Below, in pieces: positions 1,357-25,734 of a DNA stretch of 40,941 nt. The position numbers and the translations under genes are program-made. How positions within the stretch are numbered: the first letter of the stretch is position 1; each line of letters begins with the position of its first letter. The stretch comes from a virus (taxonomy: Duplodnaviria; Heunggongvirae; Uroviricota; Caudoviricetes), in the IMG/VR virus record IMGVR_UViG_2526164598_000016; one strand, written 5' to 3'. The notes under the pieces are model-generated. The model did no database searches. It was not told the origin of the DNA and saw nothing but the letters and a program-made list of their open reading frames with translations.

Positions 1357-1420
1357 GAGCGTCGTTCGCTAATCATGGTCGCCGCCACTATAGCTGGTGG
1401 GCAACGACCGGGGTTGAACA

Positions 1421-3892
1421 TTAAAAATCAGCCTGATTCGGGATCAGTTTTTGCCAGATAGCTGAAACGTATTTTGCCTGGTAACGGGCATCATCCAGCG
1501 CATTGTGGCGCTCACCTTCGAATGGGATAGCAGTTCTGGCATCGAAGTCTACGGCTTTCCCCAGCTCAACGATTGTGCGTACATCGCGATCGTTGCAGTA
1601 GCGCCACGGGCAGGGGATACCCTGTCGTTCGTATGAACGGCGCAAAATCGTGTTGTCGAAGTTGGCCCCATTACCCCAGACCTGAACAAAAAACTCACCG
1701 GAGTTTTCGTCGATAAATTCCCGCAATTGCAGTAGTGCATCATCTAACGGGATTTCATCGGTCATAATGGCAGACTGCGCTTCACGTGATTGCTTCAGCC
1801 ACCATTTAATGACGTCACGATCAATGACTCCGCCAGCAGTATCCAGATCGATGGTCTTGCTAAATTCTGGTCCCATATCTCCGGTTTGCGGATCGAAAAA
1901 TATTGCGCCTATTGAGATAATCGGGGCATCGGGATTTTTTCCCATGGTTTCAAGGTCGATCATTAGATGGTCACACGTCCTGCTGGTGGATGTGATAACG
2001 TGATGACCGTTCATCGTAATTAAGGGATCTGCCGTCTCGCCAGTTTCACTATCGCTGGCGTGATCCTGAGCGCTACCAGCATTCTCCTTGTGTGGATGTT
2101 CAGCGCCTTCCATTTCCTTCGGATCATTTTCCTGAACTTCAACCTGATTCTCTTCATCGAATGTTTCCTGGTATGTTGCGTCACCCATCACCGCGCCACA
2201 ATCAGGGCAGTTGCCGCCACCGCTTTGACCGCAGGCGGTGCAGACTTTTTCCGGTTCCTGTTGCGCTACTGGCTCAGGTTGTTTCGTTTCTGGCTCGTTT
2301 TGTTGCGTATTTGGGCTGTTTTGTTCCGCTTTCTGGTCGTTCTGTTCCGATTCTTGCTGGTTCTGGTTTACAGAATCGCGGGTTTCAATCCCCTTTACCC
2401 ATTTCGGATCATTCGGGTCGCTAATCCCTGCAACAAATTCTCCGCGAGAGGCAGCAAGCAACTTATCGGCGTCAGGCTGGCTGATATTGGCTGCCTGCAT
2501 AATTTTGTTTACTTCGTCAGCGGTAACTTTTACCGGCTCTGGTTGTGCGGTCGTGTCAGATGCACCAGTATTTTGTTGTGAACCTGAGTACGTGCCGTTT
2601 TTACGTGCGAAGTATTCCTCTTTTGTGATTTCCGTAGCTCCCAAGGCTAGTGCTTTTTCCAGACCAGAAAGTTTGTTTGCGCGACCGTATTTTTCGCCAT
2701 CCTTGTCGGTGAAGAGGAAGTAGAACGGCCCCTCACGCTCTACAGATGGTTCGACTTCCACTTTGCATTCGGTTTTTTCGTTGCCCGGAATTGCCGTTTC
2801 CACTGCATCAGTTTCTGGTACTGGCGACGAGAGAGTATCAGTTGCGCTCTGATTTCTTCCTTCATCTTCAAACACGCCCTTTGTAGTCAGGTATTCAGTA
2901 ATGTATTTGTTCAGTGCCACAGGGTCTTTGTGAATGTCGATCGGACGTTCACGGACAAGGCCAAAAATAGTCTGGCGGTCGTAGCGAAGGGCATCAGGCT
3001 GTTTGCGCATTGATGCCGAGATACGCTTCCAGTCTTCGCGGTCGTTGTCGATAACTTCATTTTTTGCCCAGCGATGGATGCTGCCGTCAATGTTTCCGGC
3101 ATCCACATCACCAGGCCAGAGAGCGTAGGCCAGTTCGTCATCCAGTGTTTTCCATGTCTGCTTGTATTCGCGATGAATGGCAGCAATGACCGGGCTGATT
3201 TTTCCTGTTGAATTTTCACTGTGCTGTTGATTGGTTCTGGCGCGGGCGAGATCAACAACAGACGTGTATTTTCCGGTTTCCTTGCGTTCACCTTCGCGAC
3301 GTTTTTTCCAGATGCGCATCTCTGCCTGAATTTCGGGCCATTTGGCACCAGGCTTACATTTATGCTTAACCCACCCGATGGCATGCAGCTTAAGCTCCGG
3401 ATACATGGCGTTAACTTCTGGCATTTTCATCAACGCTTCAACGATATGTCCGTCGAATGTTGCCATGTCTTCCTGCAACAATTCCTGTGCGCTAATAACC
3501 ATATCAACGGTGATGTTTTCACATGTGTCGAACTTAACCATGACAGCGTTCTGTACTTCAGGGGCCAGCTTGTCAAAAGTGACGTTCATCGGATCGGATT
3601 CAGTCTCAACCGGGACAAAGGAAGCAGACTCCTCATCCCAGCGGTTTTCCTGCATATATTCAGCATCCCAGGAATCGAGGGCAGGGCGGGGTATACCGGG
3701 TTTATCCTCGCAGACAAGAAATTTATAAGCGCAGTCCTGAGCAGCCGGATAATGCTCCAGGAATTGCCAGTGAAATTTTGCGCGGGCGCGACGTTCATCA
3801 CCGGCTTCAATGGCAGTGGCTACAGCGACGGCACCTTCTTCCTTTATTGCCTGTTCGTCCGGAATGGCGGCGCAAATAAAGACTTTACTCAT
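1421..3892 (-). CDS. ExoVIII-like prophage nuclease; C-terminal DnaQ-like (DEDDh) 3'-5' exonuclease domain, central acidic/Q-rich linker with a CxxC…CxxC zinc ribbon
   Basis: 823-aa ORF; C-terminus has IDLETMG…, …GNGANFD…, …HNALDDA… exonuclease motifs; middle has KVCTACGQSGGGNCPDCG; N-terminus resembles the enterobacterial exodeoxyribonuclease VIII N-terminal family (recalled). Confidence 0.8.
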   Translation of the reverse strand: MSKVFICAAIPDEQAIKEEGAVAVATAIEAGDERRARAKFHWQFLEHYPAAQDCAYKFLVCEDKPGIPRPALDSWDAEYMQENRWDEESASFVPVETESDPMNVTFDKLAPEVQNAVMVKFDTCENITVDMVISAQELLQEDMATFDGHIVEALMKMPEVNAMYPELKLHAIGWVKHKCKPGAKWPEIQAEMRIWKKRREGERKETGKYTSVVDLARARTNQQHSENSTGKISPVIAAIHREYKQTWKTLDDELAYALWPGDVDAGNIDGSIHRWAKNEVIDNDREDWKRISASMRKQPDALRYDRQTIFGLVRERPIDIHKDPVALNKYITEYLTTKGVFEDEGRNQSATDTLSSPVPETDAVETAIPGNEKTECKVEVEPSVEREGPFYFLFTDKDGEKYGRANKLSGLEKALALGATEITKEEYFARKNGTYSGSQQNTGASDTTAQPEPVKVTADEVNKIMQAANISQPDADKLLAASRGEFVAGISDPNDPKWVKGIETRDSVNQNQQESEQNDQKAEQNSPNTQQNEPETKQPEPVAQQEPEKVCTACGQSGGGNCPDCGAVMGDATYQETFDEENQVEVQENDPKEMEGAEHPHKENAGSAQDHASDSETGETADPLITMNGHHVITSTSRTCDHLMIDLETMGKNPDAPIISIGAIFFDPQTGDMGPEFSKTIDLDTAGGVIDRDVIKWWLKQSREAQSAIMTDEIPLDDALLQLREFIDENSGEFFVQVWGNGANFDNTILRRSYERQGIPCPWRYCNDRDVRTIVELGKAVDFDARTAIPFEGERHNALDDARYQAKYVSAIWQKLIPNQADF

Positions 3893-3984
3893 TTTGTTTT
3901 ACCTCATTACAGATTTAAGGGTGAACAAATCCCTGCCATTGCTGGCATATAAGAATGAAACCGGATATTTATTACGGAACTGTT

Positions 3985-4176
3985 TTAAAGACCTGCCGGG
4001 ATTTCGTTATTATCCTGGTGAATAACTTTATCGACCGGGTAACAGTTACCGGGAATTTTCTGTTCGGTTGCTGCAGTCACACACTCCTGCATTGTCCTGT
4101 GAACACTGACTGCAATATCAACTGGCTCTCCGGAAACAAGAAAAACTGTCAGAACAAGTGCAAATGCTGTATTCAT
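3985..4176 (-). CDS. Small protein (63 aa) with N-terminal hydrophobic signal/TM-like segment
   Basis: MNTAFALVLTVFLVSGEPVD…; the start ATG overlaps the stop of the upstream small ORF (ATGA overlap, plus-strand tcat at 4173-4176); lies directly upstream of the nuclease gene in the same orientation. Confidence 0.4.
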   Translation of the reverse strand: MNTAFALVLTVFLVSGEPVDIAVSVHRTMQECVTAATEQKIPGNCYPVDKVIHQDNNEIPAGL

Positions 4177-4361
4177 TGCCAGCATCCTTTTTGTATCGGA
4201 CGTAAACGGGCCAGCATTGAAAGAATGCATATTTTATTTAATAGCTCCCGTTCGTGTTTTCTCTTGTTAATGGCATCTTCAGTAAATACAGGGTTACTGA
4301 TAGTGACACCAATTTCAAAACAACCTTCAGACGTATTAACGTTTGGTAATAACGTTTCCAT
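4173..4361 (-). CDS. Small hypothetical protein (62 aa), translationally coupled to the downstream small membrane/secreted ORF
   Basis: ATG at 4361-4359 preceded by GAGGA about 8 nt upstream (reverse-complement reading); ATGA overlap with the next gene. Confidence 0.35.
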   Translation of the reverse strand: METLLPNVNTSEGCFEIGVTISNPVFTEDAINKRKHERELLNKICILSMLARLRPIQKGCWQ

Positions 4362-4927
4362 TATCGCGTCCTCAACAATGAATTTTGTGATGCGGTGCCT
4401 GGTGCCTCCAGGTGACGTTAACCAGTTAACAATTAACGCCGGATACAGAGAATCCACCCATAACACTGTTTTTGGTTTTAACTGTTCCGCGTGCGCTCAG
4501 CCGCATTCACCACATCACAAAATTCACTTTAAAAAGGGCGGCAGAGCAGTCACGGAGTAAAACTGATACCGCCAAACGTCACCAGAAAATTGATAACAGA
4601 GGGCGTTGCAGCGGGGTTGTCACTTAAGCGTATGGTCAACCTGACAACCCGGTGTCCTCAACGGGGGAAGGAATAACCCCGCCATACTTACCGCCGCGCC
4701 ATTTCGCGGATTGCCACAACCGGAAGCGCACGGTCGACGAAAATTTAACGACAGGCTATCTATGAACCAGCTACCTCGCCGTGCGCTTTCGCGTTATGGT
4801 CTGACTTTTCAGGGAAATATCCTTTCAGTAAACTGTCAGTGCCGGATTCTTATCCGTGTCCGGCGCACGACCACACGCTGTCACGAGAGGTCTCCATTCT
4901 CAACCAGTAACCTCAATGGAGGATAAA

Positions 4928-5122
4928 ATGTCAGAGCAGGAGTTAAAACTTGGTGCATGTTATTGTGTTCTCAAGGAGCTGGTACACATGCTTCCATCTA
5001 CTCAGTATCAACAGTTAGTTGGCAATTTAAATCAGCGAATCGAAGCTATGTTAAAATCTGATGGTTTTAATAACGTAGAAACGCTGATGCTAAAAAGATA
5101 TCTTGATGGATTAATCAGATAA
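4928..5122 (+). CDS. Small hypothetical protein (64 aa), plus-strand gene within a minus-strand early region
   Basis: ATG at 4928 preceded by GGAGGA (4917-4922); about 450 bp of non-coding DNA upstream; the 3' end overlaps the convergent minus-strand gene by 12 nt. Confidence 0.4.
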   Translation: MSEQELKLGACYCVLKELVHMLPSTQYQQLVGNLNQRIEAMLKSDGFNNVETLMLKRYLDGLIR

Positions 5123-5449
5123 CATTTTTTTACGGCGTTCATATTCGTTAATATTTATGAAGCCTGTTGCCAGAAGCAGTTCGTTAATTTCATGGTTGTT
5201 TGGCTGTTTCTGGCTCTTTGAGCTGGGATCTTCCACTTCTTTTTCTGCAAATTGTTTTGCTGTATCCTCTGTGCCATGGATATTTAAAGCTGTATCTGAA
5301 AACAGCCCAGTAAACGCATCGCGCACATTACGAGCCATATTATCAGTGTCTTTTTTTGTTACCGATTCCAATTCAAGTTCGTTCAGACGATGACGAAGTG
5401 TGTGTGCTGCAATCTCCTGGATTGAAGGAGGTAAATCTTTAAATTCCAT
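5111..5449 (-). CDS. Hypothetical protein (112 aa), acidic
   Basis: The internal ATG (MEFKDLPPSIQ…) has GAGG upstream; the ORF track extends 4 codons further to 5461. Confidence 0.45.
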   Translation of the reverse strand: MEFKDLPPSIQEIAAHTLRHRLNELELESVTKKDTDNMARNVRDAFTGLFSDTALNIHGTEDTAKQFAEKEVEDPSSKSQKQPNNHEINELLLATGFININEYERRKKMLSD

Positions 5450-5460
5450 CGTCAACCTCA

Positions 5461-5700
5461 TCAGTCAGTGTTTCTTGCTAACCAGCGATGCGCACCAGCT
5501 GCGGTTTTAAACGTTTTACTTTTGGTATACGTCATCGCGGTGAAGGTGCCGTCCTGGTTAGGGAACACACCGCATACCAGAGATTCGTTGTTGCCAAGAT
5601 TGAGCGTATCCATGTTGACCTCATTTCCCCTTAACGCCGGGGTAGCGGAACAAAAAACCTGCTGCGCTGTTATACAAAGTGTTCCCGCCGTCATGTTCAT
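5461..5700 (-). CDS. Small hypothetical protein, first gene of the leftward early transcript (alternative start at 5613 gives 50 aa)
   Basis: 79-aa ORF; both candidate ATGs (5700 and 5613) have GAGG-like SD; lies just downstream of the PL-like promoter/operator segment. Confidence 0.35.
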   Translation of the reverse strand: MNMTAGTLCITAQQVFCSATPALRGNEVNMDTLNLGNNESLVCGVFPNQDGTFTAMTYTKSKTFKTAAGAHRWLARNTD

Positions 5701-5904: not shown

Positions 5905-6183
5905 TTAGGGAAACTGGCGTCTTGCGTGGATCACGTTTACTACTTCAACGCTTGATGTTGTTACGCGGTATAGAATTATATAGTTAGGGTGGGCTACAAT
6001 CTCACGCAAGCCAGGTACTCTGTCGCTTGGTGGGTATAAATACGGATGTTCGGATAACGGCAGCACACAACCCCTTAATCGCTGCCATAAGCGTTCAGCC
6101 GCATCTATGTCGAAACGAGCAATATAACTAGTTATATCATCTAGGTCGGTATCTGCGCTTTCAAGCCATAACACGGGTAACAT
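5905..6183 (-). CDS. RelE/ParE-family type II toxin (92 aa)
   Basis: MLPVLWLESADTDLDDITSYIA…VHARRQFP, typical ParE/RelE-fold sequence; start ATG sits 1 nt after the antitoxin stop (TAAAATG). Confidence 0.8.
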   Translation of the reverse strand: MLPVLWLESADTDLDDITSYIARFDIDAAERLWQRLRGCVLPLSEHPYLYPPSDRVPGLREIVAHPNYIILYRVTTSSVEVVNVIHARRQFP

Positions 6184-6184
6184 T

Positions 6185-6376
6185 TTACTGCTTGCTCCGT
6201 TCCTTACGCATCTTAGCAAAGCGTTCTGCCATTCTGCGCTCAACTTCGTCATGGGGAATTGCTGGGCGCGGATCTGCAAGGCTCGTTGCTACTTTCGCAC
6301 GCAGCCATTCGTTGTAACTGTTTTCTTGTTCAATGGTTTCAAATTCAGAAACCATTGGTGAAAGGGCTCTATTCAT
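6185..6376 (-). CDS. Cognate antitoxin (63 aa, ParD/StbD-like)
   Basis: Small acidic protein immediately upstream of and coupled to the toxin; GGAGG SD 6 nt upstream of the ATG at 6376. Confidence 0.75.
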   Translation of the reverse strand: MNRALSPMVSEFETIEQENSYNEWLRAKVATSLADPRPAIPHDEVERRMAERFAKMRKERSKQ

Positions 6377-14721: not shown

Positions 14722-15096
14722 ATGCGTATAGAGTTTGTTTTGCCTTACCCGCCGACGGTGAACACCTACTGGCGACGTCGTGGCAGCACATATTTTGTAT
14801 CAAAAGCCGGTGAGCGTTATCGCCGGGCTGTGGCGCTTATTGTTCGCCAGCAGCGGCTGAAATTAAGCCTGTCCGGAAGGCTGGCGATAAAGATTATTGC
14901 CGAGCCACCGGATAAGCGCCGCCGTGACCTGGACAATATTCTGAAAGCGCCGCTGGATGCGCTGACGCATGCGGGGTTGCTAATGGACGATGAGCAGTTT
15001 GATGAAATCAATATCGTTCGTGCTCAGCCAGTATCTGGTGGACGTCTGGGGGTGAAGATTTACCCCATAATGCTTGCAGGGCAGGTCAAAAAATGA
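14722..15096 (+). CDS. rusA: Holliday junction resolvase RusA
   Basis: MRIEFVLPYPPTVNTYW…RDLDNILKAPLDALTHAGLL.DDEQ…; characteristic RusA sequence. Confidence 0.9.
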   Translation: MRIEFVLPYPPTVNTYWRRRGSTYFVSKAGERYRRAVALIVRQQRLKLSLSGRLAIKIIAEPPDKRRRDLDNILKAPLDALTHAGLLMDDEQFDEINIVRAQPVSGGRLGVKIYPIMLAGQVKK

Positions 15097-15914
15097 AACT
15101 GGAAGATTTACCGAAATACTACTCCCCAAAATCCCCCGGCCTGACTGATGCATCGGCCTCAACGTCGAAAGATGCGCTGAGTATCACTGATGTGATGGCC
15201 GCGCAGGGCATGACACAGAATCGGGCTGAGATGGGGTTTTCTGCGTTCCTTGGGAAAATGGGCATTAGTATGAATGACAGAGAGCGGGCAACAGAATTGC
15301 TGACAGAATATGCACTCAGTCGGTGTGATCGCGTGGCGGCGTTAAGAAAACTCCCGGCAGAAATAAAACCGGTAGTGATGCGCATTATGGCTTCGTACGC
15401 TTTTGAGGATTATGCCCGTAGCGCAGCGAGTAAAAAGCAGTGCCCTTGTTGCTATGGGGAAAAATTTATTGAAAGCGTAGTTTTTACAAACAAGGTCCAG
15501 TATCCGGATGGTAAGCCGCCGGTATGGGCAAAGTGTACGAAAGGTGTGTATCCGTCTTACTGGGAAGAATGGAAAAAAGTCAGGGAGGTGGTAAAAGTTG
15601 CCTGTCCGGAGTGTGGCGGAAAGGGTGAGGTTTCCACCGCCTGTAAGGATTGCCGTGGGCGTGGTGTCGCCATTCATCGTGAAGAGTCGGTAAAACGTGG
15701 TATGCCTGTTATCAGAGACTGCCAGCGTTGTGGTGGTCGTGGCTGTGAAAGACTACCATCAACGGAGGCATTTAATGCCATATGCGAAGTGACGAGTGCT
15801 ATCACGCTTGATACGTGGAAAAAATCAGTGAAACGCTTTTACGATACGTTGGTGGTTCGGTTTGACATTGAAGAGGCATGGGCGGAGCGGCAGTTAAAGA
15901 GGGTAACGCGATAG
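15093..15914 (+). CDS. Q: Late-gene antiterminator Q (zinc-finger type)
   Basis: 273-aa ORF with CPCC…CPECGGKG…CKDCRGRG…CQRCGGRG Cys clusters, directly upstream of a PR'-like promoter and terminator. Confidence 0.8.
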   Translation: MKLEDLPKYYSPKSPGLTDASASTSKDALSITDVMAAQGMTQNRAEMGFSAFLGKMGISMNDRERATELLTEYALSRCDRVAALRKLPAEIKPVVMRIMASYAFEDYARSAASKKQCPCCYGEKFIESVVFTNKVQYPDGKPPVWAKCTKGVYPSYWEEWKKVREVVKVACPECGGKGEVSTACKDCRGRGVAIHREESVKRGMPVIRDCQRCGGRGCERLPSTEAFNAICEVTSAITLDTWKKSVKRFYDTLVVRFDIEEAWAERQLKRVTR

Positions 15915-15919
15915 TGTTG

Positions 15920-15947
15920 TTGATTTTTCCCGAATCTGTGGTAAATT
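15920..15947 (+). promoter_or_regulatory. Late promoter PR' (-35 TTGATT, 16-nt spacer, -10 TAAATT; qut region follows)
   Basis: TTGATTTTTCCCGAATCTGTGGTAAATTTGCTCTAACGATGGG closely resembles the lambda PR' -10/initial transcribed region (recalled). Confidence 0.6.
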
Positions 15948-15993: not shown

Positions 15994-16018
15994 CACCCCG
16001 CCGCCTGGCGGGTTTTTT
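15994..16018 (+). terminator. tR'-like intrinsic terminator
   Basis: CCCGCC-GCCT-GGCGGG hairpin followed by TTTTTT. Confidence 0.6.
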
Positions 16019-16140: not shown

Positions 16141-16338
16141 ATGCTAAAACAGCAGGATATGACAGAAACCGCCAGAGTAGTGTTTAATGAATTAAGCGTT
16201 ACCGAACCGGCGACAGTCGGGGAGATAGCGCAGAATACTTACCTTTCACGCGAACGCTGCCAGTTAATACTGGCCCAGCTGGTTATGGCGGGTCTGGCAG
16301 ACTATCAGTTCGGTTGTTACAGACGCCTTCCGCAGTGA
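16141..16338 (+). CDS. Small winged-helix-like DNA-binding protein (66 aa)
   Basis: Internal ATG with AAAGGGAAAAAG upstream; …TVGEIAQNTYLSRERCQLILAQLVMAGL… HTH-like. Confidence 0.45.
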   Translation: MLKQQDMTETARVVFNELSVTEPATVGEIAQNTYLSRERCQLILAQLVMAGLADYQFGCYRRLPQ

Positions 16339-16348
16339 AGGCTTTTTT
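16325..16348 (+). terminator. Second intrinsic terminator, overlapping the small gene stop
   Basis: GCCTTC-CGCAGT-GAAGGC followed by TTTTTT. Confidence 0.5.
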
Positions 16349-17587: not shown

Positions 17588-17663
17588 GGCCCTTTAGCTC
17601 AGTGGTGAGAGCGAGCGACTCATAATCGCCAGGTCGCTGGTTCAAATCCAGCAAGGGCCACCA
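17588..17663 (+). tRNA. tRNA with CAT anticodon (Ile2/Met-type; ileZ-like of Stx phages)
   Basis: Cloverleaf by hand: acceptor stem GGCCCTT/AAGGGCC, anticodon loop CTCATAA, encoded CCA end. Confidence 0.85.
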
Positions 17664-17763: not shown

Positions 17764-17840
17764 GCGTTGTTAGCTCAGCCGGACAGAGCAATTGCCTTCT
17801 AAGCAATCGGTCACTGGTTCGAATCCAGTACAGCGCGCCA
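17764..17840 (+). tRNA. tRNA-Arg (anticodon TCT)
   Basis: Acceptor stem GCGTTGT/ACAGCGC, anticodon loop CTTCTAA, encoded CCA end. Confidence 0.85.
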
Positions 17841-17947
17841 TATTCATTCTTCCAGATTCCTTTCGGCAGAGCCTTATACTGAAATATACCTGGCTCAGGA
17901 TATTGTTGAAAATATTATATGTTTGTCAAAAATAAAAGTTCTGTTAA

Positions 17948-18304
17948 GTGTTGATTGAGTGTTTGTTATACGGTCTAATGGTTTTTTCAGCATTAAATAT
18001 TTATCATTCATATGGTGTGGGTAGAGTGAATATTGATGAGGCGTCGGGGTGTTTCATCCTTAGGCAGCGTATTGATATAGTCAATGCAGAACGAGCAAAG
18101 GCCTTCAGCCGTTTGACAGTTTTGTTCTGTACTCCTGATCGTCTTTCGGGAAGAGACGTTATTATTCTGAATAGTGATGCTATACAGAGGGTTTGCGATG
18201 AGTTCATGGTGGCTAATTCAGAATTATTTGCTCTTGTTCAGGAGTACAACAGAATAGCCAGGACCTGTGGTATGGATGAACTTCGGATTACTCATCTGGG
18301 GTAG
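17948..18304 (+). CDS. Hypothetical ORF in the cargo slot (118 codons from GTG; alternative ATG at 17978)
   Basis: Open frame only; no convincing SD; unknown product. Confidence 0.3.
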   Translation: MLIECLLYGLMVFSALNIYHSYGVGRVNIDEASGCFILRQRIDIVNAERAKAFSRLTVLFCTPDRLSGRDVIILNSDAIQRVCDEFMVANSELFALVQEYNRIARTCGMDELRITHLG

Positions 18305-18696
18305 ATACATATCTGGATTATCACCGGTTACGGTAAAAAGTGATTGCTTACTGTTTTTGTGAATGGCATTGCAGCAGCCGGATAATGTCAGTGCTGGCTG
18401 ACGGTGTGCTGGTGGCGGGTGTGGTGGTTGCTGCTTTCCCGTTGCTGAAAAAGAAAACGCCAGACTGTTAGCCGGGTATCAGTTAGCGGGAGAAATTTTT
18501 AAATACTTCACAATTCAGGCGGTTGACTGTTGTCTGGTTTGCGGGGAGTTTGTTAAAAGAAACTGGCATGGTGAATCCCCCTGTGCGGAGGGGCAATCAG
18601 CGAGTAGGTATATGGGATAATCGCGGATTCAGGTGCTGGTACTGAATTCACCGGGAGGCACCCGGCACCATGCAATGGCACATAGCGCCACTCTCC

Positions 18697-18731
18697 AGCC
18701 CCTCTCCGGAGGGGCTGTTTATATTGATTTT
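18697..18731 (+). terminator. Hairpin plus T-rich tract (plus-strand terminator-like) inside the cargo slot
   Basis: AGCCCCTC-TCCG-GAGGGGCT followed by GTTTATATTGATTTT. Confidence 0.45.
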
Positions 18732-18760
18732 GTCAGATGTGAGTAAACTCCTTATGGACT

Positions 18761-19087
18761 TTATTGTTTTAGCCCATAAGGACATATTTGCAGAGTGCAA
18801 CGGTTATTAAAGCATTCATTCAATACGTTATCTGTATTTGTAGGGCATTCCTGGCTGTTTTTGATTAAATTCCAGAATGTTTTATTGAATGGTACTACGT
18901 TGTAAATGGTTACAGGTAGCACTTTGTTATTGAGCATGATGCCTGTGTGAGTCAGTGTAAATATACTTTCAGGAGGTAAGAAAGCATCCGATTGATACCA
19001 GATTATTAATTTTATTTTACTCCATATGACTGAAAAAGATATTCCGCATGATGGCTGGATAACTGTATCAATCACAATCCACTTCAT
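18761..19087 (-). CDS. Hypothetical Cys-containing protein (108 aa) in the cargo slot, opposite orientation to late genes
   Basis: ATG preceded by AAGGA at 7-nt spacing (reverse-complement reading); AT-rich codon usage; four Cys in the C-terminal third. Confidence 0.35.
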
Positions 19088-19347
19088 TTAGTTTCCTTGT
19101 TTATGCCTTGCTGGTGATGTTCTGAAAAGTATAAATGATATTTTTGATTGTAAACCATAGAGCAGAATTATTTTTCTGATGTTGTTTATTGTTTATTTAA
19201 ATGCAGGGTGGTTTATATCTCGTCTTGTAGTTTATCCATGCATATCTGCTTGATGATGAGGTTTTTAATTAAGGTATGGTTTTGTGTTTTTTCTGTATTA
19301 CATGTCAGGTATTTTAAAGAATCATTTTTCAGATGGTGGAAAGAACC

Positions 19348-21201
19348 ATGGCATTTAAACACTATGATGTTGTCAGGGCGGCGTCGCCGTCAGATCTTGC
19401 GGAAAAGCTGACACATAAACTGAAAGAGGGCTGGCAGCCGTTTGGTAGTCCGGTGGCCATAACCCCTTATACCCTGATGCAGGCGATTGCAGCAGAAGGT
19501 GATGTGGTCGTCAGTGGTGCAACTGAGCCGGAGTGGTACTACGTCATCGTACTGGCCGGGCAGTCCAATGCCATGGCTTACGGTGAAGGGCTTCCGCTTC
19601 CGGATTCATACGATGCGCCCCATCCGCGCATTAAGCAACTGGCCCGTCGTAACACAGTGACTCCCGGTGGTGAAGTATGCGTATTTAACGACATCATTCC
19701 TGCTGACCATTGTCTGCATGATGTTCAGGATATGAGTACGATTAACCATCCCCGGGCTGACCTGAGCAAAGGGCAGTACGGCTGTGTCGGACAGGGCTTA
19801 CATATTGCCAAAAAACTGCTTCCGTATATCCCTAATAACGCGGGGATCCTGCTGGTACCATGCTGTCGTGGTGGTTCGGCATTCACCCAGGGCACGGAGG
19901 GGACATTCAGCGAGTCCACGGGGGCCAGTCAGGATTCGGCTCGCTGGGGAGTGGGTAAGCCGTTATATCAGGATCTGCTTTTCCGCACGAAGGCAGCATT
20001 GCAGAAAAACCCGAAAAACGTTTTGCTGGCGATATGCTGGATGCAGGGGGAATTCGATATGACGAATGCCAGTTACGCCCAGCAGCCAGCAGCATTTCTT
20101 GCAATGGTACAGCAGTTCCGTGCTGACCTTGCCGGGCTGGCGGCGCAGTGTCACGGTGGAAGTCCGGCATCAGTCCCCTGGATTTGTGGCGACACGACAT
20201 ACGCGTGGAAACAAGAACACGGTACGCAATATGAAGTGGTATATGGTGCATATAAAGGTAAAGAATCCCAGCAGATTTATTTTGTTCCCTTTATGACCGA
20301 TGGTAGCGGAGTTAATACACCGACAAACAACCCGTCAGAAGATCCTGATATTGTCGGGTCTGGTTATTACGGTTCGGCATCCCGAACGAACAAAAACTGG
20401 GTATCATCAAATCGCCCGACGCATTTCAGCTCATGGGCGCGTCGTGGCATTATTCCCGATCGTATGGCAACCGCTATTCTGAACGCAGCCGGGCGCACCT
20501 CAGCTTTCATCAGTGGTAAGGCACCGGAAATCAAACCCTCGCCCGGCGGCAACACGCCATCGGGGCCGTCTGAAGATGCATCCGTACGCACAATCTCCCT
20601 GTTGCCGACAGCCGGAGAGGCTGCTGCGCAGGGCTGGACCATTAAGGACGGCGGAATTCAGTTGTCGGGTGGTGTATTTAAGATCGCCAAGCAGAGCAAT
20701 AAAACCTGGTCCCTGATGCATCCGGTGGATGACGCAGTCTCCCTGCTGACACGGGGTGGCAGACTGAGCTGTAAGTTTCGACTGTCAGGCGCACTGACCA
20801 ACAACCAGTTCGGCCTGGGAATTTATCTGTATACCGATGTAGCGTTACCTGACGTCGTGGCGATGACCGGGACTGGTAACCCGTTCCTGATGTCGTTCTT
20901 CACCCAGACCACAGACGGCAAACTGAATCTGATGCATCACAAGAAAGCAGGAAACACAAAGTTGGGCGAGTTCGGGAATTACAGTAATGACTGGCAGACG
21001 CTGGAACTGGTGTTCACCGCCGGCAGTGCCACGGTTACTCCGAAACTGAATGGAGTGGCTGGCCCGGCATTCCAGGTCATAAAAGACAGTCTGACACTGG
21101 GGCTGAATGCGCTGACGCTGACGGATATTACCAAAAATGCAGCGTATGGCGTTGAGATAGAAAGTCTGGTGCTGGAGATAAATGCACCGGCATCATCATA
21201 A
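19348..21201 (+). CDS. nanS: NanS-p-like sialate O-acetylesterase (N-terminal DUF1737-like region, SGNH/SASA hydrolase core)
   Basis: GQSNA motif (…VIVLAGQSNAMAYGEG…); matches prophage nanS-p genes found downstream of stx (recalled); ATG at 19348 with GGAAAGA SD. Confidence 0.8.
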   Translation: MAFKHYDVVRAASPSDLAEKLTHKLKEGWQPFGSPVAITPYTLMQAIAAEGDVVVSGATEPEWYYVIVLAGQSNAMAYGEGLPLPDSYDAPHPRIKQLARRNTVTPGGEVCVFNDIIPADHCLHDVQDMSTINHPRADLSKGQYGCVGQGLHIAKKLLPYIPNNAGILLVPCCRGGSAFTQGTEGTFSESTGASQDSARWGVGKPLYQDLLFRTKAALQKNPKNVLLAICWMQGEFDMTNASYAQQPAAFLAMVQQFRADLAGLAAQCHGGSPASVPWICGDTTYAWKQEHGTQYEVVYGAYKGKESQQIYFVPFMTDGSGVNTPTNNPSEDPDIVGSGYYGSASRTNKNWVSSNRPTHFSSWARRGIIPDRMATAILNAAGRTSAFISGKAPEIKPSPGGNTPSGPSEDASVRTISLLPTAGEAAAQGWTIKDGGIQLSGGVFKIAKQSNKTWSLMHPVDDAVSLLTRGGRLSCKFRLSGALTNNQFGLGIYLYTDVALPDVVAMTGTGNPFLMSFFTQTTDGKLNLMHHKKAGNTKLGEFGNYSNDWQTLELVFTAGSATVTPKLNGVAGPAFQVIKDSLTLGLNALTLTDITKNAAYGVEIESLVLEINAPASS

Positions 21202-21332
21202 AAAGTGAGCCAGTCAAATGGAAGGTATCGTTAAACTCACCGGTAGTGTCAGTGGGTCGTCTGAGATGCCTGCATGAGTTATCAGAGCCATCAGTACTTA
21301 ACTGGTGGCTTTTTTTATTGTTGTCAGCTTCC

Positions 21333-21340
21333 GGATAACG
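21333..21340. repeat. Target-site duplication GGATAACG (left copy)
   Basis: Identical 8-mer directly flanks both IS ends (second copy at 23783-23790). Confidence 0.8.
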
Positions 21341-21411
21341 GTAAGCGTACAGCCTGAACCGTCTGGTCAGAATCTGACAAATTAGACAAAGTGGTGTCCA
21401 CCAAATAAGTA

Positions 21412-21813
21412 GTGGGAACCAAAGTGTCAGATATGCAGAAAAATGTGACTCCCGGCAGGCGAAAAGGCTGCCCTAATTATCCTCCCGAATTTAAACAGCA
21501 GCTCGTTGCTGCCTCCTGTGAACCCGGGATATCCATCTCAAAACTTGCTCTTGAAAATGGCATTAACGCCAATCTGTTGTTCAAATGGCGACAACAATGG
21601 CGCGAGGGAAAGCTGCTATTACCTTCTTCAGAGAGCCCCCAGCTACTTCCTGTGACTCTCGATGCAGCTGCCGAACAGCCAGAATCGCTCGCAGAGGACC
21701 CGGAAACCCTCAGTATCAGCTGTGAGGTAACGTTCCGGCACGGGACGCTCCGCTTCAATGGCAATGTCAGCGAAAAGCTCCTGACTCTGCTGATACAGGA
21801 ACTGAAGCGATGA
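21412..21813 (+). CDS. IS66 accessory protein TnpA (orf1); alternative ATG start at 21433
   Basis: HTH-containing small ORF typical of the first IS66 gene. Confidence 0.75.
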   Translation: MGTKVSDMQKNVTPGRRKGCPNYPPEFKQQLVAASCEPGISISKLALENGINANLLFKWRQQWREGKLLLPSSESPQLLPVTLDAAAEQPESLAEDPETLSISCEVTFRHGTLRFNGNVSEKLLTLLIQELKR

Positions 21814-22157
21814 TCCCGTTACCTTCCGGGACCAAAATTTGGCTGGTTGCCGGTATCACCGATATGAGAAATGGCTTCAACGGCCTGGCTGCGAAAGTAC
21901 AAACGGCGCTGAAAGACGATCCCATGTCCGGCCATGTTTTCATTTTCCGGGGCCGCAGCGGCAGTCAGGTTAAACTGCTGTGGTCCACCGGTGACGGACT
22001 GTGCCTCCTGACCAAACGGCTGGAGCGTGGGCGCTTCGCCTGGCCGTCAGCCCGTGATGGCAAAGTGTTCCTTACGCAGGCGCAGCTGGCGATGCTGCTG
22101 GAAGGTATCGACTGGCGACAGCCCAAGCGGTTGCTGACCTCCCTGACCATGCTGTAA
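21810..22157 (+). CDS. IS66 TnpB (orf2)
   Basis: [27 protein letters not shown]… typical IS66 orf2; ATGA-coupled to orf1. Confidence 0.85.
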
Positions 22158-22206
22158 ATCTCTTTATCCTGGTTGTCACAGAATAAGCCCGGTAAAATAC
22201 GGGCTT

Positions 22207-23745
22207 ATGAACGACATCTCTTCTGACGACATCTTCCTGCTGAAACAGCGCCTGGCCGAACAGGAAGCGCTGATCCACGCCCTGCAGGAAAAGCTGAGCA
22301 ACCGGGAGCGCGAAATAGACCATCTGCAGGCGCAGCTGGATAAACTCCGCCGGATGAACTTCGGCAGTCGTTCCGAAAAAGTCTCCCGCCGTATCGCACA
22401 AATGGAAGCCGATCTGAACCGGCTTCAGAAAGAGAGCGATACGCTGACTGGTAGGGTGTATGACCCGGCTGTACAGCGTCCGTTGCGTCAGACCCGCACC
22501 CGTAAGCCGTTCCCTGAATCACTACCCCGTGACGAAAAGCGACTGTTGCCTGCGGCGCCGTGCTGCCCGAACTGCGGCGGTTCACTGAGCTATCTGGGCG
22601 AGGATACCGCCGAACAGCTGGAGTTGATGCGTAGTGCCTTCCGGGTTATCCGGACGGTACGGGAAAAACATGCCTGTACTCAGTGCGATGCCATCGTGCA
22701 GGCACCTGCACCTTCGCGGCCCATCGAGCGGGGTATCGCCGGACCGGGGCTGCTGGCCCGCGTGCTGACCTCGAAGTATGCAGAGCACACCCCGCTGTAT
22801 CGCCAGTCAGAAATATACGGCCGGCAAGGTGTGGAGCTGAGCCGTTCACTGCTGTCGGGCTGGGTGGATGCATGCTGCCGGCTGCTGTCTCCGCTGGAAG
22901 AGGCGCTTCATGGCTATGTCATGACTGACGGCAAACTCCATGCCGATGATACCCCGGTCCAGGTACTGCTGCCGGGTAATAAGAAGACGAAGACCGGGCG
23001 GTTGTGGGCGTATGTTCGTGATGACCGCAATGCCGGGTCAGCGTTGGCACCTGCAGTGTGGTTCGCTTACAGCCCGGACAGAAAAGGCATCCATCCGCAG
23101 ACTCATCTTGCCTGCTTCAGCGGTGTGCTGCAAGCGGATGCGTACGCCGGGTTCAACGAGCTGTATCGCAATGGTGGGATAACGGAAGCTGCCTGCTGGG
23201 CTCATGCCCGCCGAAAGATCCACGATGTGCACGTCCGCATCCCGTCAGCACTGACGGAAGAAGCCCTGGAGCAGATCGGTCAGTTGTACGCCATAGAGGC
23301 GGATATAAGGGGAATGCCGGCAGAGCAGCGGCTTGCTGAACGTCAGCGAAAAACGAAACCGCTGTTGAAATCCCTGGAAAGCTGGTTGCGTGAAAAGATG
23401 AAAACCCTGTCGCGACACTCAGAACTGGCGAAAGCGTTCGCATACGCCCTGAACCAGTGGCCGGCGCTGACGTACTATGCAGATGATGGCTGGGCTGAGG
23501 CGGACAATAACATCGCTGAAAATGCGTTGCGGATGGTCAGTCTGGGCCGCAAAAACTACCTGTTCTTCGGTTCGGATCATGGAGGAGAGCGGGGAGCGCT
23601 GCTGTACAGCCTGATCGGGACGTGCAAACTGAACGGAGTGGAGCCAGAAAGCTACCTCCGCTATGTCCTTGACGTCATAGCCGACTGGCCGATAAACCGG
23701 GTCGGCGAACTGCTCCCCTGGCGCGTAGCACTGCCGACTGAATAA
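22207..23745 (+). CDS. IS66-family transposase TnpC
   Basis: 512-aa ORF with N-terminal leucine zipper, CxxC…CxxC zinc ribbon and DDE-type core, as in IS66 transposases. Confidence 0.9.
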
Positions 23746-23782
23746 CACATCCCCGTCAATACGGTTCTTGCTGCACGCTTAC

Positions 23783-23790
23783 GGATAACG
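23783..23790. repeat. Target-site duplication GGATAACG (right copy)
   Basis: Matches 21333-21340. Confidence 0.8.
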
Positions 23791-23801
23791 GGAGACGGGG
23801 T

Positions 23802-24017
23802 ATGTACCAGATGGAAAAAATCACAACAGGTGTGTCATACACCACGTCAGCGGTGGGAACGGGCTACTGGTTCCTGCAGTTGCTGGACAGGGTTTCCCCG
23901 TCTCAGTGGGCGGCAATAGGCGTGCTGGGGAGTCTGCTGTTTGGGCTGCTGACATATCTGACTAACCTGTATTTCAAAATCAGAGAGGACCGTCGTAAGG
24001 CTGCACGGGGAGAGTAA
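23802..24017 (+). CDS. S: Holin (lambdoid S-type, 71 aa)
   Basis: [29 protein letters not shown]…[15 protein letters not shown]; dual-start-like MYQM; GGAG SD at 23791-23794. Confidence 0.85.
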
Positions 24018-24435: not shown

Positions 24436-24969
24436 ATGAACGCAAAAATCAGATACGGCCTGTCGGCTGCCGTTCTGGCACTGATTGCCGCTGGTGCGCC
24501 TGCGCCTGACATTCTCGACCAGTTTCTGGATGAAAAGGAAGGTAACCACACCACGGCATACCGTGATGGCGCGGGTATCTGGACCATCTGCCGCGGTGCC
24601 ATCCTGGTGGATGGCAAACCTGTCGTTCCGGGCATGAAGTTGTCGAAGGAAAAATGCGACCGGGTTAACGCCATTGAGCGTGATAAGGCGCTGGCATGGG
24701 TGGAGAAAAACATCAAAGTGCCATTGAGCGAACCCCAGAAAGCGGGGATCGCGTCATTCTGTCCGTACAACATTGGTCCCGGTAAGTGTTTCCCGTCGAC
24801 GTTTTACAGACGAATTAATGCTGGCGATCGCAGGGGAGCATGTGAGGCGATTCGCTGGTGGATTAAGGACGGTGGCAGAGACTGCCGTATTCGTTCAAAT
24901 AACTGCTATGGACAGGTCTCACGGCGTGACCAGGAGAGCGCGCTGGCGTGCTGGGGTATCGACAGATAA
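24436..24969 (+). CDS. R: SAR-endolysin (phage lysozyme with N-terminal signal-anchor-release segment)
   Basis: MNAKIRYGLSAAVLALIAAGAPAP… followed by a lysozyme-like core. Confidence 0.85.
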   Translation: MNAKIRYGLSAAVLALIAAGAPAPDILDQFLDEKEGNHTTAYRDGAGIWTICRGAILVDGKPVVPGMKLSKEKCDRVNAIERDKALAWVEKNIKVPLSEPQKAGIASFCPYNIGPGKCFPSTFYRRINAGDRRGACEAIRWWIKDGGRDCRIRSNNCYGQVSRRDQESALACWGIDR

Positions 24970-25127
24970 GCAGAATATTTTGCTGAAAATAAGGCATGGC
25001 CACGCGGGCGGATAACATGAAATCCTGCGAAGTGGCGAAACGTAAGTGAATAAAAGTAAAAACCCCGTTTGTTGGCACCAAGCGGGGTTTTGTGTTTCCT
25101 GACTCCGGAAAAGTCAAAGGAGAAAGT

Positions 25128-25266: not shown

Positions 25267-25734
25267 ATGAACCGCGTACTGTGCGTGGTCATCATTGCCC
25301 TGCTGGTGGCCTGTGGTGCGCTTAGTCTGGGGCTGAATCATTACCGTGATAACGCCATAACCTACAAAGAGCAGCGCGATAAAAAAGTCAGTGAGCTGGA
25401 GCAGGCAAATGCAACCATTACTGATATGCAGCAGCGCCAGCGTGATGTTGCTGCACTTGATGCCAGATACTCGAGGGAATTAGCCGATGCGAGAGCTGAA
25501 AATGAAACTCTGCGCGCTGACGTTGCCGCTGGTCGTAAGCGCCTGCGGATCAACGCCACCTGCCCCGGTACCGTGCGTGAAGCCCCCACCACCTCCGGCG
25601 TGGATAATGCAACCGGCCCCCGACTGGCAGACACCGCTGAACGGGATTATTTCACTCTCAGAGAGCGGTTGATGCTGATGCAGAAGCAGCTGGAAGTGGC
25701 GCAGGAATATATCCGCACTCAGTGCCTGAAATAA
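25267..25734 (+). CDS. Rz: Spanin, inner-membrane subunit (Rz)
   Basis: N-terminal TM segment, coiled-coil-rich periplasmic domain, embedded Rz1 frame. Confidence 0.85.
   Translation: MNRVLCVVIIALLVACGALSLGLNHYRDNAITYKEQRDKKVSELEQANATITDMQQRQRDVAALDARYSRELADARAENETLRADVAAGRKRLRINATCPGTVREAPTTSGVDNATGPRLADTAERDYFTLRERLMLMQKQLEVAQEYIRTQCLK
25502..25672 (+). CDS. Rz1: Spanin, outer-membrane lipoprotein subunit (Rz1), embedded in Rz in another frame
   Basis: MKLCALTLPLVVSAC lipobox followed by a Pro-rich segment. Confidence 0.7.
   Translation: MKLCALTLPLVVSACGSTPPAPVPCVKPPPPPAWIMQPAPDWQTPLNGIISLSESG

Follow-up and report, generated by a model that had tools for sequence, protein, structure and literature searches.

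A complete insertion sequence (IS) of the IS66 family lies directly in front of the ribosome-binding site of the holin gene S in a lambda-like prophage. The prophage is carried on a 40,941-nucleotide stretch of viral DNA (IMG/VR record IMGVR_UViG_2526164598_000016), and this whole stretch is called the window here. The element is a recombinant of ISEc8 and ISEc22 that was inserted recently, and the same base pair has been struck in the same orientation by other IS66 variants in other prophages. As a whole, the explanation that accounts best for the data, and that we consider probable, is a recent IS66 insertion at a genuine hot spot, within a late operon whose transcription is carried through the element by polymerase modified by the antiterminator Q.

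Boundaries, Ends and Genes of the Element

The element starts with GTAAGCGTACAGCC at 21341 and ends with GCTGCACGCTTAC at 23782, and a perfect 8-bp direct duplication, GGATAACG, stands immediately outside both ends (Table 1). The chance of repetition of a given 8-mer is 1.5e-5, and a repeat finder independently reported both the terminal inverted repeat and a duplicated 9-mer. The left and right inverted repeats (IRL GTAAGCGTACAGCCTGAACCGT and IRR GTAAGCGTGCAGCAAGAACCGT) match at 19 of 22 positions and are identical over their first 8 nucleotides, as is characteristic of IS66-family ends, which are imperfect repeats of about 20–30 bp opening with 5'-GTAAGCG. The 8-bp duplication is also that of the family. 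GGATAACG is single-copy in the empty sites described below, and 8-bp duplications also flank 14 other copies of the IS in IMG/VR loci.

The gene content places the element in the same family. Three plus-strand open reading frames, which occupy most of its length, encode consecutive tnpA, tnpB and tnpC, the first two overlapping in an ATGA. TnpC, with 512 amino acids (aa; about 500 in the family), adds the IS66 zinc-finger, leucine-zipper and C-terminal domains to PF03050, and all of the family matches are above their curated cut-offs. With these intact reading frames and with identical copies at many loci, the element is presumably transposition-competent. A copy of GGATAACGG within the IS (23177-23185) was dismissed as a chance occurrence.

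The original prediction, made from the letters of the DNA, had described a complete 2442-bp IS66-type element with GTAAGCG-type ends, a perfect 8-bp target duplication and intact transposase genes between nanS-p and S. The boundaries, inverted repeats, gene-family matches and coordinates of the neighbouring genes agree with this description in every part. The insertion lies in the 150-bp nanS-p–S spacer. Since the GGAG Shine-Dalgarno sequence of S occupies 23791-23794, the IS end and the GGAG are separated by exactly the 8-bp duplicated copy. This is the distance given in the body of the original prediction, and the 9 bp of its title reflects a difference in counting.

Table 1. Coordinates of the element, its target and the surrounding late-region features in the window.
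Feature	Position	Strand	Remarks
Late antiterminator Q (273 aa)	15093-15914	+	PF03589 Antiterm, E 6e-51
Candidate late promoter PR'	15920-15947	+	TTGATT, 16-nt spacer, TGgTAAATT; inferred by eye
Predicted intrinsic terminator, likely tR'	15997-16018	+	first of four between Q and S
Predicted intrinsic terminator	16325-16342	+	between Q and S
Predicted intrinsic terminator	18696-18717	+	between Q and S
nanS-p-type sialate O-acetylesterase (622 aa)	19333-21201	+	PF03629 SASA, PF08410 DUF1737, PF20350 DUF6645
Native intrinsic terminator	21284-21316	+	11-12 bp stem, T7 run; ends 16 nt before target duplication
Flank TTATTGTTGTCAGCTTCC	21315-21332	+	resembles IS right end TTCTTGCTGCACGCTTAC, 12/18 in register
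Target-site duplication, left copy GGATAACG	21333-21340	.	directly outside IS
Complete IS66-family element	21341-23782	+	2442 bp, ISEc8/ISEc22 chimera
Left terminal inverted repeat GTAAGCGTACAGCCTGAACCGT	21341-21362	+	
tnpA (accessory, helix-turn-helix)	21412-21813	+	PF01527, NF047595
tnpB (IS66 Orf2 accessory)	21810-22157	+	PF05717, NF033819
tnpC (DDE transposase, 512 aa)	22207-23745	+	PF03050 E 6e-106, PF13817, PF13007, PF13005, NF033517
Chimera breakpoint interval	23386-23403	+	IS columns 2046-2063, informative-site pattern
Right terminal inverted repeat, ending in GCACGCTTAC	23761-23782	+	
Target-site duplication, right copy GGATAACG	23783-23790	.	directly outside IS
GGAG Shine-Dalgarno of S	23791-23794	+	3' arm of predicted hairpin in uninterrupted site
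Class II (phage-21-type) holin S (71 aa)	23802-24017	+	PF04971, E 9e-33
Endolysin R (lysozyme)	24436-24969	+	PF00959
Rz spanin	25267-25734	+	PF03245

A Chimera of ISEc8 and ISEc22

The identity of the element was established by comparison with two relatives. The ISEc8 reference was the O157 copy annotated 'insertion sequence:ISEC8' (2442 bp) in the Shiga toxin (Stx) phage 1717, an Stx2 phage (FJ188381), and the name ISEc22 was taken from RefSeq annotation. The window element shares its length of 2442 bp, its tnpA-tnpB-tnpC layout, its ends and its 8-bp duplication with ISEc8 of O157:H7, and the two are 99.5–100% identical over IS positions 1–2046, with TnpC at 97%. The last ~380–440 bp, in contrast, are about 88% identical, and overall identity is 97.5%. 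Counted along the element, the O157 copy differs at 0–2 positions per 200 bp as far as position 2000 but has 52 mismatches over the final 442 bp. ISEc22 (2441 bp) is identical to the window element over positions 2063–2442, including the right inverted repeat, but it is 77–95% identical over positions 400–2000 and 90.5% overall.

In a three-way alignment the informative sites agree with ISEc8 as far as column 2046 and with ISEc22 in columns 2063–2442. Because this switch is clean, the element is read as a chimera, with ISEc8-type sequence for its first ~2050 bp and ISEc22-type sequence for its last ~380 bp. The original prediction had named ISEc8 and its relatives as the comparison to make. 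Membership of the IS66 family and relatedness to ISEc8 both stand, but the plain name ISEc8 probably does not, the element being 97.5% identical overall with a tail that is 100% ISEc22.

The recombinant appears to have spread as a unit since it was formed. Full-length copies with 100% identity occur in enterotoxigenic Escherichia coli H10407, on both chromosome and plasmid, and in other strains; RefSeq labels them 'IS66 family transposase' only, with no ISEc8 name. Copies of at least 99% identity occur in some 319 records, and related copies in 4061 of 5426 complete E. coli genomes. Since 100% identical copies are found in many genomes, the hybrid seems to be a successful lineage.

The Empty Site and the Age of the Insertion

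The empty site was sought with a 1200-bp query from which the IS and one GGATAACG had been deleted, a genome being counted if at least 80% of the query matched. It is present in 1293 of the 5426 complete E. coli genomes, with the best matches running in a single piece at 99.4–99.7%, and the alignment with E2348/69 has a single GGATAACG and an uninterrupted join. Closer relatives came from Logan contigs chosen for encoding exactly the NanS-p protein of the window. Six of these carry the empty site, and in the empty-site contigs L094 and L092 one mismatch separates the upstream flank from that of the window over 3.7 kb and 2.7 kb, respectively.

None of the 5426 complete E. coli genomes has a copy of the window's own junctions (junction k-mers CCGGATAACGGTAAGCGT and ACGCTTACGGATAACGGGAG). 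The left-junction 30-mer had no match in IMG/VR, and the right-junction 20-mer had none in GTDB representative genomes and only three in JGI metagenomes, all of them chance matches in unrelated DNA. No IS was found at this site in phage records, and a look-up of the holin at 10 places gave no further IS-bearing neighbourhood. Because identical copies of the IS exist elsewhere, the junction is missing from all of these genomes and siblings with one mismatch are empty, the insertion appears to be recent relative to the divergence of these prophages. The original prediction had suggested a recent event and had asked for an alignment of the flanks with related prophages; the former is supported by these observations, and the latter confirms the empty site in both the complete genomes and the Logan siblings.

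IS copies are multi-copy repeats, which commonly break or mis-join assemblies, and a repeated IS could in principle have been misplaced into the prophage. That this happened here is scarcely credible. The perfect 8-bp duplication is present at both junctions and its sequence is single-copy in the empty site. Moreover, Logan contig L095 (run SRR096911), which matches window positions 17803-21369 without a mismatch and with one 1-base gap over 3.6 kb, crosses the left junction and extends 29 bp into the IS. The left junction has thus been assembled independently, which argues against an artefact of the window's assembly.

Recurrent Insertion at One Base Pair

Two further prophages carry an IS66-family element at the same place. 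In O157:H7 strain Balcarce_24.2 (locus L001, NZ_CP076245.1, 1339-3780), an O157-type ISEc8 has the same position, the same orientation and the same GGATAACG duplication, in a prophage that differs from that of the window in having another upstream gene and an RrrD-type endolysin. This is the only same-site insertion among the 5426 complete E. coli genomes. Many sister O157 strains contain its reconstructed empty site, 99.9% identical over 1 kb, and 516 records match it at 99% or more. Since the sister strains are empty and no other complete genome has a donor junction, the Balcarce_24.2 insertion appears to be a separate, strain-specific transposition. In IMGVR_UViG_638341084_000012 (L075/L006), ISEc22 occupies the same right junction with the same orientation and duplication, and a sibling (L072, IMGVR_UViG_2534681774_000032) that is 99.1% identical over the 9.3 kb up to the target has an empty site. 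One base pair has therefore been struck, always in the same orientation, by three IS66 variants in three prophages, each of which has an empty sibling. If targeting were random, such a coincidence would be expected well below once, as an order-of-magnitude estimate, and the site appears to be a genuine IS66-family insertion hot spot.

The same distribution could also arise without a hot spot, from a single ancestral insertion spread between prophages by homologous recombination, with its body overwritten by gene conversion between ISEc8 and ISEc22. Lambdoid prophages are highly mosaic, and the two elements do recombine, the window IS being itself a chimera. The last 397 bp of the IS and the first ~270 bp of S are, in addition, identical between the window and L006. 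These 397 bp, however, are simply an ISEc22-type end that every copy of either variant has. All three prophages with the IS have a near-identical sibling whose site is empty, the Balcarce_24.2 flanks diverge from those of the window within 25–60 bp on the left and 25 bp on the right and match O157 empty sites instead, and no other O157 genome in the complete set carries a donor junction. A single spreading insertion is improbable on these grounds, and independent strikes on a hot spot are preferred.

What makes the site attractive is a question of lower confidence. No target consensus emerged from 15 other verified 8-bp duplications and 60 distinct right junctions in IMG/VR and RefSeq loci, which have a mild excess of G at position 1, and no target preference of ISEc8 or IS66 was found described in the literature searched. 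The 18 nucleotides adjacent to the left copy of the duplication, however, resemble the right end of the IS itself (Table 1). Elsewhere in the window, a fraction of 3e-4 of the 18-mers matches the IS end at 12 or more positions, and the corresponding flank matches the IS end at 1–7 of 18 positions at the 15 other insertion sites. Mimicry of the IS end by the adjacent flank may thus, with low confidence, be the cause of the hot spot; the adjacent terminator and the leader hairpin of S are alternative determinants.

Probable Transcription of the Late Operon through the Element

The prophage has an intact Q gene upstream of the element, and its late operon is thus presumably transcribed by a polymerase that Q has made resistant to terminators. 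S, R, Rz, Nu1 and A are all on the plus strand, in the layout of a Q-antiterminated late operon. In Stx-type lambdoid phages the late genes, lysis genes included, are read from PR' after Q antitermination (PMC7547250), and processive antitermination by lambda N and Q is sequence-independent and bypasses multiple terminators over long distances (PMC10325885). In the native phage, polymerase must pass four predicted intrinsic terminators on its way from Q to S, the last of which (21284-21316) is conserved in empty-site relatives. The IS is co-oriented with the late operon, and no intrinsic terminator is predicted on its plus strand. Classical genetics has, furthermore, shown that lambda N and Q suppress the polarity of IS insertions.

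After induction, Q-modified polymerase starting from PR' would be expected to read through the IS as it does through the four native terminators, and following this read-through the lysis and morphogenesis genes would still be expressed. The late transcript would be 2.4 kb longer, which at typical elongation rates would delay S, R, Rz and later genes by about 1 minute, and tnpABC would be strongly co-transcribed. The overall effects would be modest, with the structure of the S leader altered. The original prediction had expected the insertion to be polar on holin, endolysin and spanin expression and possibly on the head and tail genes, unless the IS supplied outward transcription. With Q upstream, four terminators in the native phage and none on the plus strand of the IS, this expectation is probably overstated.

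Strong polarity, in which the IS blocks read-through from PR', turns off the lysis, head and tail genes and leaves a lysis-defective, cryptic prophage, nevertheless deserves to be weighed. The IS interrupts the one late transcription unit ahead of every lysis and structural gene, it has no convincing outward promoter at its right end, and IS elements are polar in ordinary operons. The IS66 and IS1 copies that other strains have within S or beside it (L003, L009 and L005, described below) would fit a recurrent decay of the lysis module. We regard such a block as unlikely, since the Q-modified polymerase is terminator-resistant and four predicted native terminators already precede S. The IS consists mostly of translated reading frames, with no terminator on the plus strand, and it leaves the ribosome-binding site and start codons of S untouched. 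ISEc8 is also found within antiterminated operons in the sequenced records of two other lambdoid phages, 1717 and Stx2a_F451.

Transcription might instead originate in the element, which would then act as a mobile promoter from which S, R and Rz could be expressed in the lysogen without Q. From the end of tnpC it is 37 bp to the IS end and 57 bp to the start codon of S, and because no terminator intervenes, any tnpABC transcript should continue into S. IS transposase promoters are generally weak, however, and no outward or hybrid promoter of the sigma-70 type was detected at either IS end at the threshold of the tool; at a relaxed threshold there was one weak candidate, TTGACG-16-GATAAA, at the right end. 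Constitutive production of holin and endolysin would, moreover, be counter-selected, yet the arrangement has arisen three times. This possibility appears remote, and read-through by Q-modified polymerase is retained.

The Leader and Translation of Holin S

The sequence of S from –19 to the start codon is unchanged by the insertion, because the duplication regenerates the 8 bp beside the GGAG, and the ribosome-binding site is intact. The structure around it may differ. The native leader is predicted to form a hairpin, CUUCCG/GAUAA/CGGGAG, that sequesters the ribosome-binding site, and the leaders of other S alleles, the phage-21-type MKSMD allele among them, have comparable predicted hairpins. 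The element interrupts the 3' arm of this hairpin. In the interrupted leader, the IS end would contribute CUUACG as the 5' arm, leaving one A·G mismatch in the stem. The predicted folds also include a rival pairing, between IS nucleotides 23747-23757 and nucleotides 23794-23805, which could mask the first start codon. It is possible, therefore, that the insertion changes S translation through an altered leader structure.

The paired sequences are ACAUCCCCGUC at the IS right end and GACGGGGUAUGU, which comprises the S spacer and the first start codon. The O157 ISEc8 and the ISEc22 copies inserted here have the same IS segment; the S segment is also unchanged next to ISEc22 and differs by a single base in Balcarce_24.2.

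The holin gene has in-frame ATG codons at positions 1 and 4 (23802-23813), a dual-start motif that has been described for S21 (PMC9636201). The extension of S21 is Met-Lys-Ser, whereas that of the window S is Met-Tyr-Gln, without Lys or Arg. It is the positive charge of the three-residue extension that makes S21 71 an antiholin. The window S therefore resembles S21 in its dual ATG and differs from it in charge, and an antiholin role of its longer product is putative.

Several points count against the explanation favoured here. The assignment of PR' and qut was made by eye, and a consensus promoter scan did not pick up the candidate PR' at 15920-15947. The terminator scan covers the intrinsic type, and Rho-dependent termination within the IS is beyond its reach. 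With 2.4 kb added, the genome could become too long to be packaged; on the right the prophage extends beyond the window. The leader folds are not statistically distinct from those of shuffled sequences (z-scores of –1.5 to +0.6, for short leaders). Finally, the resemblance between flank and IS end concerns a single site and was noticed post hoc, and most insertion sites are without such similarity.

A more ambitious scenario can be drawn from the same observations. The class II holin leader would be an IS66 hot spot whose 5' flank mimics the right end of the element and attracts ISEc8, ISEc22 and their chimera, all in one orientation, to a single base pair; co-transcription with the late operon would then couple a burst of transposase to induction, and the IS would travel in phage particles without disabling the phage. 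Taken in full, this scenario is rather doubtful.

The Prophage and Its Late Region

The window is a lambda-like prophage that is otherwise intact-looking, with an integrase at 1-1131 and RusA. The order in the late region is Q, a DNA methylase, two tRNAs, the small RNA STnc100, nanS-p, the IS, S, ydfR, R and Rz, the DUF1327/YdfR gene standing between the holin and the lysozyme. A lambda-type Nu1/A terminase and then head and tail genes follow the lysis genes. The interval from Q to S is free of stx genes.

The two tRNAs downstream of Q are tRNA-Met(CAT) at 17588-17663 (+) and tRNA-Arg(TCT) at 17764-17840 (+), and no stx follows them; Stx phages carry ileZ, argN and argO at this position. STnc100 (Rfam, 132 bits) lies at 18537-18726 (+), between the tRNAs and nanS-p, and ends in the terminator at 18696-18717. 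A PmrD-like open reading frame is found on the opposite strand at 18761-19087. Between R and Rz there is a strong 13-bp hairpin, AAAACCCCG...CGGGGTTTT, at 25059-25091 (+), with no good T-run. A ParE-family toxin gene is encoded at 5905-6279 (–) in the early/immunity region of the prophage.

Comparison with Known Systems

In kind the window case is ordinary: a known element is present in a further copy, at a site of which the literature searched gave no description. The recurrent insertion at the same site is the one modestly novel result, and three independent strikes on one base pair by IS66 variants could reveal rules of target selection. Where operons are antiterminated, an IS within the late operon should not be taken as proof of a dead phage. 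The lysogen and its IS-free siblings would form a clean natural pair for gauging the tolerance of Q antitermination towards a 2.4-kb insert placed directly before the lysis cassette.

With respect to target choice, the nearest parallels are IS911 and IS30, which insert next to sequences resembling their own ends. The window target is likewise flanked by an 18-nt match to the IS right end in the same orientation; the difference is that the window case is a sequence correlation at one site. No demonstration of insertion next to end-like sequences was found for the IS66 family in the literature searched.

Other IS copies have been found near holin genes. Class II holin genes have IS66-family copies called ISEc8 inserted within their 3' ends in L003 (NZ_CP144926.1, 4114-6555) and L009 (IMGVR_UViG_640753024_000008, 3135-5576), and a later rearrangement is likely at both since the two flanking 8-mers differ. 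In L002 (NZ_CP027323.1, strain 2013C-3033, 1357-3798), ISEc8 lies in a DUF826 gene just upstream of S, with the duplication ACTGAAAC. An IS1 is located between S and ydfR, within about 50 bp of the holin gene, in the otherwise near-identical lysis module of L005 (NZ_CP117016.1, strain MLI121, 2374-3071), and also in strain E18 (H159). At L025 (IMGVR_UViG_2534682252_000032, 3135-5576) the left flank is CGAAAAAC of the L013 site and the right flank is GACATCAG of the L014 site, and such mixed flanks point to recombination between two IS copies, by inversion or deletion.

Among lambdoid phages, the closest comparison is with Stx phages. In phage 1717, ISEc8 lies in the early right operon. In other Stx phages, IS1203/IS629 and, in Stx2a_F451, ISEc8 are found in the Q-S region (PMC10462455), that is, in the late operon as in the window. 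None of these Q-S insertions is at the S leader, and the window prophage, unlike its counterparts, is without stx. ISEc8 of Stx2a_F451 differs further in having the opposite orientation and in lying between stx2B and nanS-p, whereas the window element is co-oriented with the late operon and lies between nanS-p and S.

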